A stretch of 7,997 bases of DNA from Escherichia coli. GTDB lineage: Bacteria; Pseudomonadota; Gammaproteobacteria; Enterobacterales; Enterobacteriaceae. The notes beneath the pieces were generated by a model. It ran no database searches. It was not told where the DNA came from and was given only the letters and a program-made list of their open reading frames with translations. Shown piece after piece: positions 2,734 through 2,826 of this stretch. Where the stretch lies: the NCBI RefSeq assembly GCF_003334335.1, contig NZ_QOWQ01000069.1; one strand, 5' to 3'. Position numbers and translations under genes: made by a program. How positions within the stretch are numbered: position 1 is the stretch's first letter; each line of letters starts with the position of its first letter.

Positions 2734-2755
2734 AAATGAGGACCTGGTCTCATTT
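2734..2755. promoter_or_regulatory. Imperfect palindrome in the garD 5' leader/operator region
   Basis: AAATGAG(G)ACC T GGT CTCATTT: AAATGAG (2734-2740) is the reverse complement of CTCATTT (2749-2755), with inner GACC/GGTC and one asymmetric base. Lies 31-52 bp upstream of the garD start codon. Confidence 0.35.
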
Positions 2756-2797
2756 AAAAATAAATGACTTCATTGGGTGAAATAAGAATGTCAGGAG

Positions 2798-2826
2798 TTT
2801 AAACGCAGAAATGTGATCAATGTCAA
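2798..2826 (-). promoter_or_regulatory. Candidate sigma70 promoter for garD
   Basis: Minus-strand perfect TTGACA (plus 2821-2826), 17-bp spacer, then TTTAAA (plus 2798-2803) as a weak -10. Predicted by eye only. Confidence 0.3.

Follow-up and report, generated by a model that had tools for sequence, protein, structure and literature searches.

The garD core promoter of Escherichia coli: CRP site, extended −10 element and leader palindrome

The genes garD and garP of Escherichia coli share one divergent control region of 374 bp (2704-3077, 36% G+C), which we analysed within a stretch of 7997 nucleotides (nt) of E. coli K-12 garD/garPLRK DNA (hereafter the window, to which all positions refer). 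Positions 2778-2830 are in all likelihood the garD core promoter, which would be a class II CRP-dependent promoter with an extended −10 element rather than a promoter of the −35/−10 type; a palindrome in the garD leader would be a weak stem-loop at most, and two boxes further upstream are putative sites of the regulator CdaR. According to the mechanism of activation that we infer, cyclic AMP (cAMP)-CRP would bind at 2819.5, i.e. at −41.5, standing in for the −35 element, and RNA polymerase would recognize TG-a-CATTCT (−15 to −7) and start at the A at 2778, producing a 75-nt leader. Published supplementary tables of 2009 and 2011 already contain the start site of garD and its CRP site, and the promoter part of this explanation is thus known.

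The CRP site and the extended −10 element

The upstream regions of 80 garD loci collected from other species were aligned, and 59 Enterobacteriaceae loci were used for the promoter counts. A CRP-like site was found within 300 nt of the ATG in 58 of the 59. When the sites were located by the CRP pattern alone and the downstream sequence was then inspected, the motif TGnNANNNT was present exactly 18 nt after TCACA at 52 of the 59 loci, whereas the control offsets yielded it 3 times in 3159. The bases C-12, A-11 and T-7 were invariant in this anchored set (the anchoring had partly selected for them), and the T and G of the TG dinucleotide were conserved in 92% and 95% of the loci, respectively. 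The information content of the anchored alignment peaked at both CRP half-sites, at TG and at −12C, −11A and −7T, and reached background a few bases past the predicted start. The E. whittamii hexamer is CATCTT instead of CATTCT, with A-11 and T-7 retained (locus L002, 2360-2513).

The CRP site of E. coli has a perfect right half (TCACA) and a degenerate left half (TTGA for GTGA). An earlier interpretation of this DNA from the letters alone (the sequence-only reading) had taken the perfect TTGACA found here for a −35 element; it actually belongs to the CRP site, as its degenerate left half. The hexamer at this position is GTGATC in 37 of the 59 Enterobacteriaceae loci and TTGATA in E. albertii; E. 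coli and E. whittamii are the sole species with TTGACA. The common form, GTGATC-NN-GATCACATT, is a CRP site (TGTGA-N6-TCACA), and, judging from the alignment, the left half in E. coli has drifted to TTGA(C), spelling TTGACA by chance.

Binding of CRP in vitro was described by Shimada 2011 (PMC3105977, supplement 4), where a peak of genomic systematic evolution of ligands by exponential enrichment (SELEX) was assigned to the spacer of garPLRK and garD; its box, TGTGATCAATGTCAAT, is located at approximately 3,273,190 (U00096.2). This box maps to 2812-2827 of the window. A symmetrised CRP matrix constructed from 125 SELEX boxes of the same table, with the garD row left out, gave the garD box a score of 13.0 bits, which makes it the top 16-mer of the window and places it at the 61st percentile of the real boxes. 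A CRP site, AAATGATTGACATTGATCACATTT, ending at −31 of the garD start at −75, was also predicted by a matrix scan (Mendoza-Vargas 2009; PMC2760140, supplement 6). Elsewhere in the window, the second-best match to the CRP matrix (11.4 bits, 173-188) is located in the 3′-terminal part of yhaV and faces agaR, and a second genomic-SELEX CRP peak lies inside the garD coding sequence (box GCTGCAACTTTTCACA, 2046-2061; Shimada 2011).

In an RNA-seq study (PMC6390033), garD, garP, garL, garR, gudP and cdaR were found in the Crp-cAMP-dependent carbon-limitation group, and the effect on garD was assumed by the authors to be indirect, through cdaR. Because of the geometry of the site, the action of CRP at garD appears to be at least partly direct, and garD is probably a direct CRP target, at least in part, beyond the indirect route via cdaR.

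The CRP centre at −41.5 and the extended −10 element together predicted +1 at 2778 before any start-site data had been found. The published garD 5′ end, determined by 454 pyrosequencing and listed at −75 from the ATG with the −10 element tcctGACATTCTTAtttc (Mendoza-Vargas 2009, Table S1; PMC2760140, supplement 3), corresponds to 2778 of the window, exactly as predicted. A garD transcription start site (TSS) was not found in the accessible parts of the supplements of Kim 2012, Yan 2018 and Ettwiller 2016. Among all same-strand hexamer pairs, only the extended −10 element, 7 nt away, predicts a start at 2778, and upstream of CATTCT the −35 matches amount to only 0-2 of 6 bases. The promoter thus combines what characterizes class II CRP dependence (a consensus-like site, in vitro binding known from the literature and a centre at −41.5 from the mapped TSS) with what characterizes an extended −10 element (TG at −15/−14 and a poor or absent −35). 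The pairing of CTGACA (2793..2788) as a −35 element with CRP at −61.5 was also considered and rejected, as no −10 element follows.

Between the promoter block and the ATG, the distance varies among genera, with predicted leaders of 47 to 213 nt. Because this distance varies, the conserved block was assigned to the promoter and the rest to a fast-evolving leader.

MG1655 and thousands of other E. coli chromosomes match the segment 2600-3200 with 100% identity. Positions in NC_000913.3 are obtained as 3,277,985 minus the window position, and those in U00096.2 are lower by a further 1,976. The genes annotated in the window are yhaV, prlF, garD (minus strand, ATG at 2703-2701) and the divergent garP-garL-garR-garK (plus strand, from 3078). 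The coordinates of the features are given in Table 1.

Table 1. Features of the garD control region and its surroundings, with positions in the window
Feature	Position	Strand	Remarks
garD coding sequence	1132..2703	−	galactarate dehydratase, 523 aa
garD Shine-Dalgarno (SD) sequence GGAG	2715..2718	−	11 nt before the ATG; read from sequence, kept across genera
garD 5′ untranslated leader	2704..2778	−	75 nt; middle part differs among genera in both sequence and length; ~35 nt at the 3′ end (SD region) conserved
Palindrome AAATGAG-N8-CTCATTT	2734..2755		+24 to +45 of the leader, centre at +34.5
garD TSS, +1 = A	2778	−	NC_000913.3 3,275,207; predicted by the CRP/−10 geometry, then matched to the published 5′ end
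Extended −10 element TG-a-CATTCT	2785..2793	−	TG 2793-2792 (−15/−14), hexamer 2790..2785 (−12 to −7); no recognisable −35
TTTAAA, earlier proposed as −10	2798..2803	−	unconserved spacer between the CRP site and the true −10
CRP-cAMP site	2809..2830	−	22-mer ATGATTGACATTGATCACATTT; 16-bp core 2812-2827; centre 2819.5, −41.5 from the mapped TSS
TTGACA, earlier proposed as −35	2821..2826	−	weak half-site of the CRP box
Two direct-repeat boxes GCnnnTGCACA	2873..2905	−	2895-2905 (−127 to −117) and 2873-2883 (−105 to −95); candidate CdaR sites
garP promoter	2940..2979	+	box GCATTTGCACAATG (2940-2953), TTGCAC-N24-TATACT (2974-2979)

The garD leader and its palindrome

The sequence-only reading had predicted a leader of about 85 nt. 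The transcription of garD from a promoter within this stretch was borne out, while the length was about 10 nt too great, the mapped 5′ end giving 75 nt. The palindrome was correctly placed in the transcribed leader, as the TSS at 2778 puts it at +24 to +45. This TSS also falls outside both ranges, downstream of 2734 and upstream of 2830, that had been named as incompatible with the proposal.

On present evidence, the palindrome is real but ordinary. Its arms form a perfect 7+7 repeat, ACC/GGT can pair too with a bulged G, and 15 nt separate it from the SD sequence. Chance was estimated with dinucleotide shuffles of the intergenic region 2704-3077. Of the shuffles, 28% contained one or more perfect 7+7 inverted repeats with a loop of 3-12 nt and 24% contained TTGACA on either strand, so neither the repeat nor the hexamer is statistically unusual. 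Among the compared garD loci, the palindrome was present only in Escherichia. Neither its arms nor its centre varies among four diverse E. coli strains. E. coli, E. whittamii and E. albertii share the same 7-nt arms but each have a different 8-nt centre (ACCAGGTC, ATTGAATT and CCACGATA, respectively). In the comparison with E. albertii, none of the 14 arm positions was changed vs 17 of the 43 other positions of the variable leader (p = 0.003). In the comparison with E. whittamii, 6 of the 8 centre positions (2741-2748) but only 2 of the 49 in the rest of the leader were changed (p = 2e-5), and the centre looks like a substitution hotspot that arose by a clustered replacement event. No convincing donor for a template switch was found nearby, the sole match being a reverse-complement AT-rich 8-mer, 181 nt off in E. 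whittamii and likely a chance one. Fixed arms with a free centre would fit either a protein operator with two half-sites or a stem with a free loop; because the arms are identical, the two cannot be told apart by covariation.

If the palindrome acts at all, it is most likely a weak, AU-rich, lineage-specific mRNA stem-loop with little or no regulatory role and at most a modest effect on stability. A real function, as an operator or as an RNA element, is perhaps possible overall but doubtful. A regulatory hairpin of the 5′ untranslated region (UTR) could be a stabiliser, a barrier to RNase E, a stem-loop binding a protein or a small RNA, or a switch arm pairing with the upstream UCAUUUA (2767..2761). 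We consider such a role unlikely. The palindrome is transcribed and a stem of 7-8 bp can be formed in all three Escherichia species despite the different loops, but this stem is weak (−5.0 kcal/mol in E. coli, −7.2 in E. whittamii and −4.6 in E. albertii). The hairpin belongs to the minimum-free-energy fold of E. whittamii and, with flanking pairs, to that of E. albertii, whereas it is absent from both the minimum-free-energy fold and the centroid of E. coli. An overlapping repeat at 2750-2767 supplies a competing pairing, and an AU-rich hairpin of some kind is found at +10 to +50 in many other genera. Whole leaders, however, are no more stably folded than shuffled sequences (z = +1.04, +0.20 and −0.39 in Escherichia), and the identical arms leave no covariation to be tested. 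The hairpin is clear of the SD sequence and is not terminator-like.

The overlapping repeat is itself a perfect 7+7 one (TCATTTA-AAAA-TAAATGA), which on the garD strand overlaps the left arm of the palindrome. The AAAUGA of garD RNA can pair upstream (with UCAUUU) or downstream (with CUCAUUU), and the minimum-free-energy fold of E. coli takes the upstream partner, which is unconserved in E. albertii. Other RNA-based roles were rejected. A structured leader conserved across genera is at variance with the mean z of −0.18 over 57 leaders and with a middle part that cannot be aligned. An intrinsic terminator or attenuator is at variance with the AU-rich stem of −5 kcal/mol, and no terminator-like site was detected in 2650-3130. 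A known RNA family was not recognized over the leader with the covariance models of Rfam 15, the best score being 17.3 bits vs a gathering score of 43 and all E-values at least 0.63.

That the palindrome is a true lineage-specific control element, either an operator for a dimeric factor or a functional 5′-UTR stem-loop, is quite unlikely; if it were one, it would represent genus-specific regulation of a gut-relevant sugar-acid pathway. Its action as a DNA operator, where a dimeric factor bound at +34.5 would obstruct promoter clearance or elongation at garD in Escherichia, is distinctly improbable. Arms perfectly kept around a variable 8-bp centre are the pattern expected of an operator with two half-sites, the arms escaped the changes seen elsewhere in the leader, and the pattern is unique within the window. 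However, no factor is known for the palindrome, none was reported at garD in the binding studies searched, and the repeat is missing from all other genera that retain the same promoter and regulators; a 7+7 repeat is moreover readily obtained by chance, as the shuffles showed. A second CRP site was rejected for the palindrome: its scores are 3.6 (E. coli), 6.9 (E. whittamii) and −2.2 bits (E. albertii), and 41 other 16-mers of the window score at least as high as that of E. coli. A KdgR-like box (AAATGAAAC...GTTTCATTT) was also dropped: the half-sites are similar, but the spacing is N6 instead of N5 and E. albertii does not retain the match.

Alternative promoters

The sequence-only reading had proposed a σ70 promoter consisting of TTGACA (2826..2821), a 17-bp spacer and TTTAAA (2803..2798). 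These letters, as well as the palindrome at 2734-2755, are present as described. The pair would initiate transcription near 2791, giving the 85-nt leader, and a variant with a 19-bp spacer and TAAACT (2801..2796) would start near 2789; either of them could serve, in E. coli only, as a weak basal promoter independent of CRP, which we regard as very improbable. The −35 hexamer is perfect, the 17-bp spacer exists, TTGACA is kept in every sampled E. coli strain and in E. whittamii, and TAAACT of the variant has A-11 and T-7. Beyond these two species, however, the hexamers TTGACA and TTTAAA are unconserved; TTGACA, frequent as it is in shuffles, lies within the CRP-bound site, where occupancy by CRP would occlude the −35, and the mapped TSS is 2778 and not 2789-2791.

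The assignment of TTTAAA as the −10 element cannot be upheld either. The hexamer lacks both A-11 and T-7, and in the aligned column A was present at position 2 in 8% and T at position 6 in 17% of the 59 loci. Its 3′ end (2798) is 20 nt from the mapped TSS, i.e. outside the 5-9 nt expected after a −10 element. The pair predicts a TSS at approximately 2791, about 13 nt too far upstream, and it is excluded as the source of the TSS at 2778 because the distance from its −10 to this TSS is too long. A consensus promoter scan of 2650-3130 detected no σ70-like site, rejecting the pair, since the second and sixth bases of TTTAAA are not the A and T of a −10 element. TTGACA/TTTAAA thus lacks three canonical σ70 features (A2 and T6 in the −10, a TSS 5-9 nt downstream and hexamers conserved in orthologues). 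The correction of this promoter call matters mainly for the quality of annotation, and it illustrates that a perfect TTGACA may belong to an activator site instead of a −35 element.

A proximal promoter, TTTAAA (2758..2753)-17 bp-TTTAAT (2735..2730), which would start near 2723 and have the palindrome as a spacer controlled by a bound protein or an extruded cruciform, is barely credible: its hexamers match at 4 of 6 and 5 of 6 positions with a 17-bp spacer and a TAATAT- or TATTAT-like hexamer recurs ~25-30 nt before the ATG in several genera, but its −10 lacks A-11, no 5′ end is listed near 2723 (PMC2760140), and its −35 and spacer are unconserved across genera, in contrast to the conserved CRP/extended −10 block. 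The repeated TTCTTTATTT motifs, considered as CdaR sites upstream of the proximal promoter, were rejected, as the fixed geometry and the mapped TSS place them at −9 to +25.

Several points weigh against the class II CRP-dependent, extended −10 promoter and the accompanying view of the leader. A single uninduced 454 data set of 2009 is the source of the mapped 5′ end, with a table value of 2, which we took as the read count. The garD −10 element was classed as σ38-type by PATSER (PMC2760140). The dependence of garD on CRP in vivo could be partly indirect, via cdaR. The CdaR boxes are proposed from sequence, no CdaR footprint having been found in the literature searched. The minimum-free-energy fold of the E. 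coli leader omits the palindrome hairpin, and the conservation of the arms within Escherichia (p = 0.003) hints at a constraint that a palindrome with no or a weak role does not explain.

Upstream boxes and comparison with known systems

The regulation of garD by CdaR is textbook knowledge. The two upstream boxes, GCATATGCACA (2895-2905) and GCTAAAGCACA (2873-2883), point toward garD and lie at a constant distance from the CRP site; few parts of the region are as well conserved. The core GCnnnTGCACA is common to the promoter regions of garD, garP, cdaR and gudP, and exact matches to GCNNNTGCACA occur twice in the window, both times in intergenic DNA. The autoregulated cdaR carries a 14-mer box identical to that of garP, with N24 to TATGCT (L083, 1401-1440), and gudP carries TTGCAC-N24-TATACT (L082, 8279..8244); garD has no pair of this type and so does not have a typical CdaR-type promoter. 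Most likely, CdaR would mediate the induction by galactarate, glucarate and glycerate from the two conserved boxes at −127 to −95, which would be shared with the divergent garP promoter. Accordingly arranged, garD may have an unusual order of activators, with CRP at −41.5 and the PucR-family CdaR acting from about −95 to −127. The literature searched, including biosensor papers, yielded no published CdaR operator or footprint, and nothing on CdaR was found in Shimada 2021. The candidate operator GCnnnTGCACA is of interest in view of the wide use of CdaR as a biosensor for glucarate/glycerate.

The upstream TGCACA boxes also scored moderately as CRP-like (9.8 bits at 2895-2910 and 9.3 bits at 2873-2888, plus strand) because TGTGCA resembles TGTGA, and they may be bound by CdaR, CRP or both. 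The 10-mer TTGCACAATG (2701-2710, minus; ATATTGCACAATGGCC in the direction of garD) spans the start codon of garD and corresponds to the core of the garP CdaR-type box (2944-2953, plus) with 100% complementarity. It is Escherichia-specific, other genera reading CTGGACAATG at the garD start, and could be due to chance or represent a CdaR site at about +66 to +78 of garD.

In Pectobacterium, Dickeya, Serratia, Erwinia, Pantoea, Brenneria and Gallibacterium (L059-L080), GTCAnTTGCAyAATG-N-TATACT was found ~90-130 nt upstream of garD. This is the layout of E. coli garP, gudP and cdaR; the class II CRP/extended −10 layout of Enterobacteriaceae is absent there, and a CRP-like site is located further upstream. 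As judged from these alignments, the type of the garD promoter has been exchanged between families during evolution. Two natural insertions were also encountered. In Ecol_AZ147, an IS1 with a 9-bp duplication is inserted between the garP CdaR-type box and the −10 (2965-2973; L089), and in ET650 an IS1 abuts 2794 (L088), the garD side, including the garD −10, TSS and gene, being deleted.

The proposed garD promoter resembles the galP1-type class II CRP/extended −10 promoters, in which CRP at −41.5 covers the −35 position and TG is present at −15/−14. Like the textbook case galP1, garD has CRP at −41.5, no usable −35 and TG ahead of an imperfect −10 in which A-11 and T-7 are retained. In contrast to galP1, garD also depends on CdaR, with likely sites upstream of CRP (approximately −95 to −127), and would therefore be a co-dependent rather than a simple CRP promoter; its −10 (CATTCT) is also poorer than that of galP1. 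With garPLRK, gudPXD and cdaR, garD shares boxes of the GCnnnTGCACA type and the inducers, but whereas the box of garP, gudP and cdaR is located ~42 nt upstream of the start, this position is occupied by CRP in garD and the boxes are far upstream. The combination of catabolite control with a substrate-specific activator bound in tandem is analogous to that of the textbook promoters araBAD and melAB. In araBAD and melAB, the specific activator is next to the polymerase and CRP is upstream, whereas at garD the order of the activators appears to be reversed.

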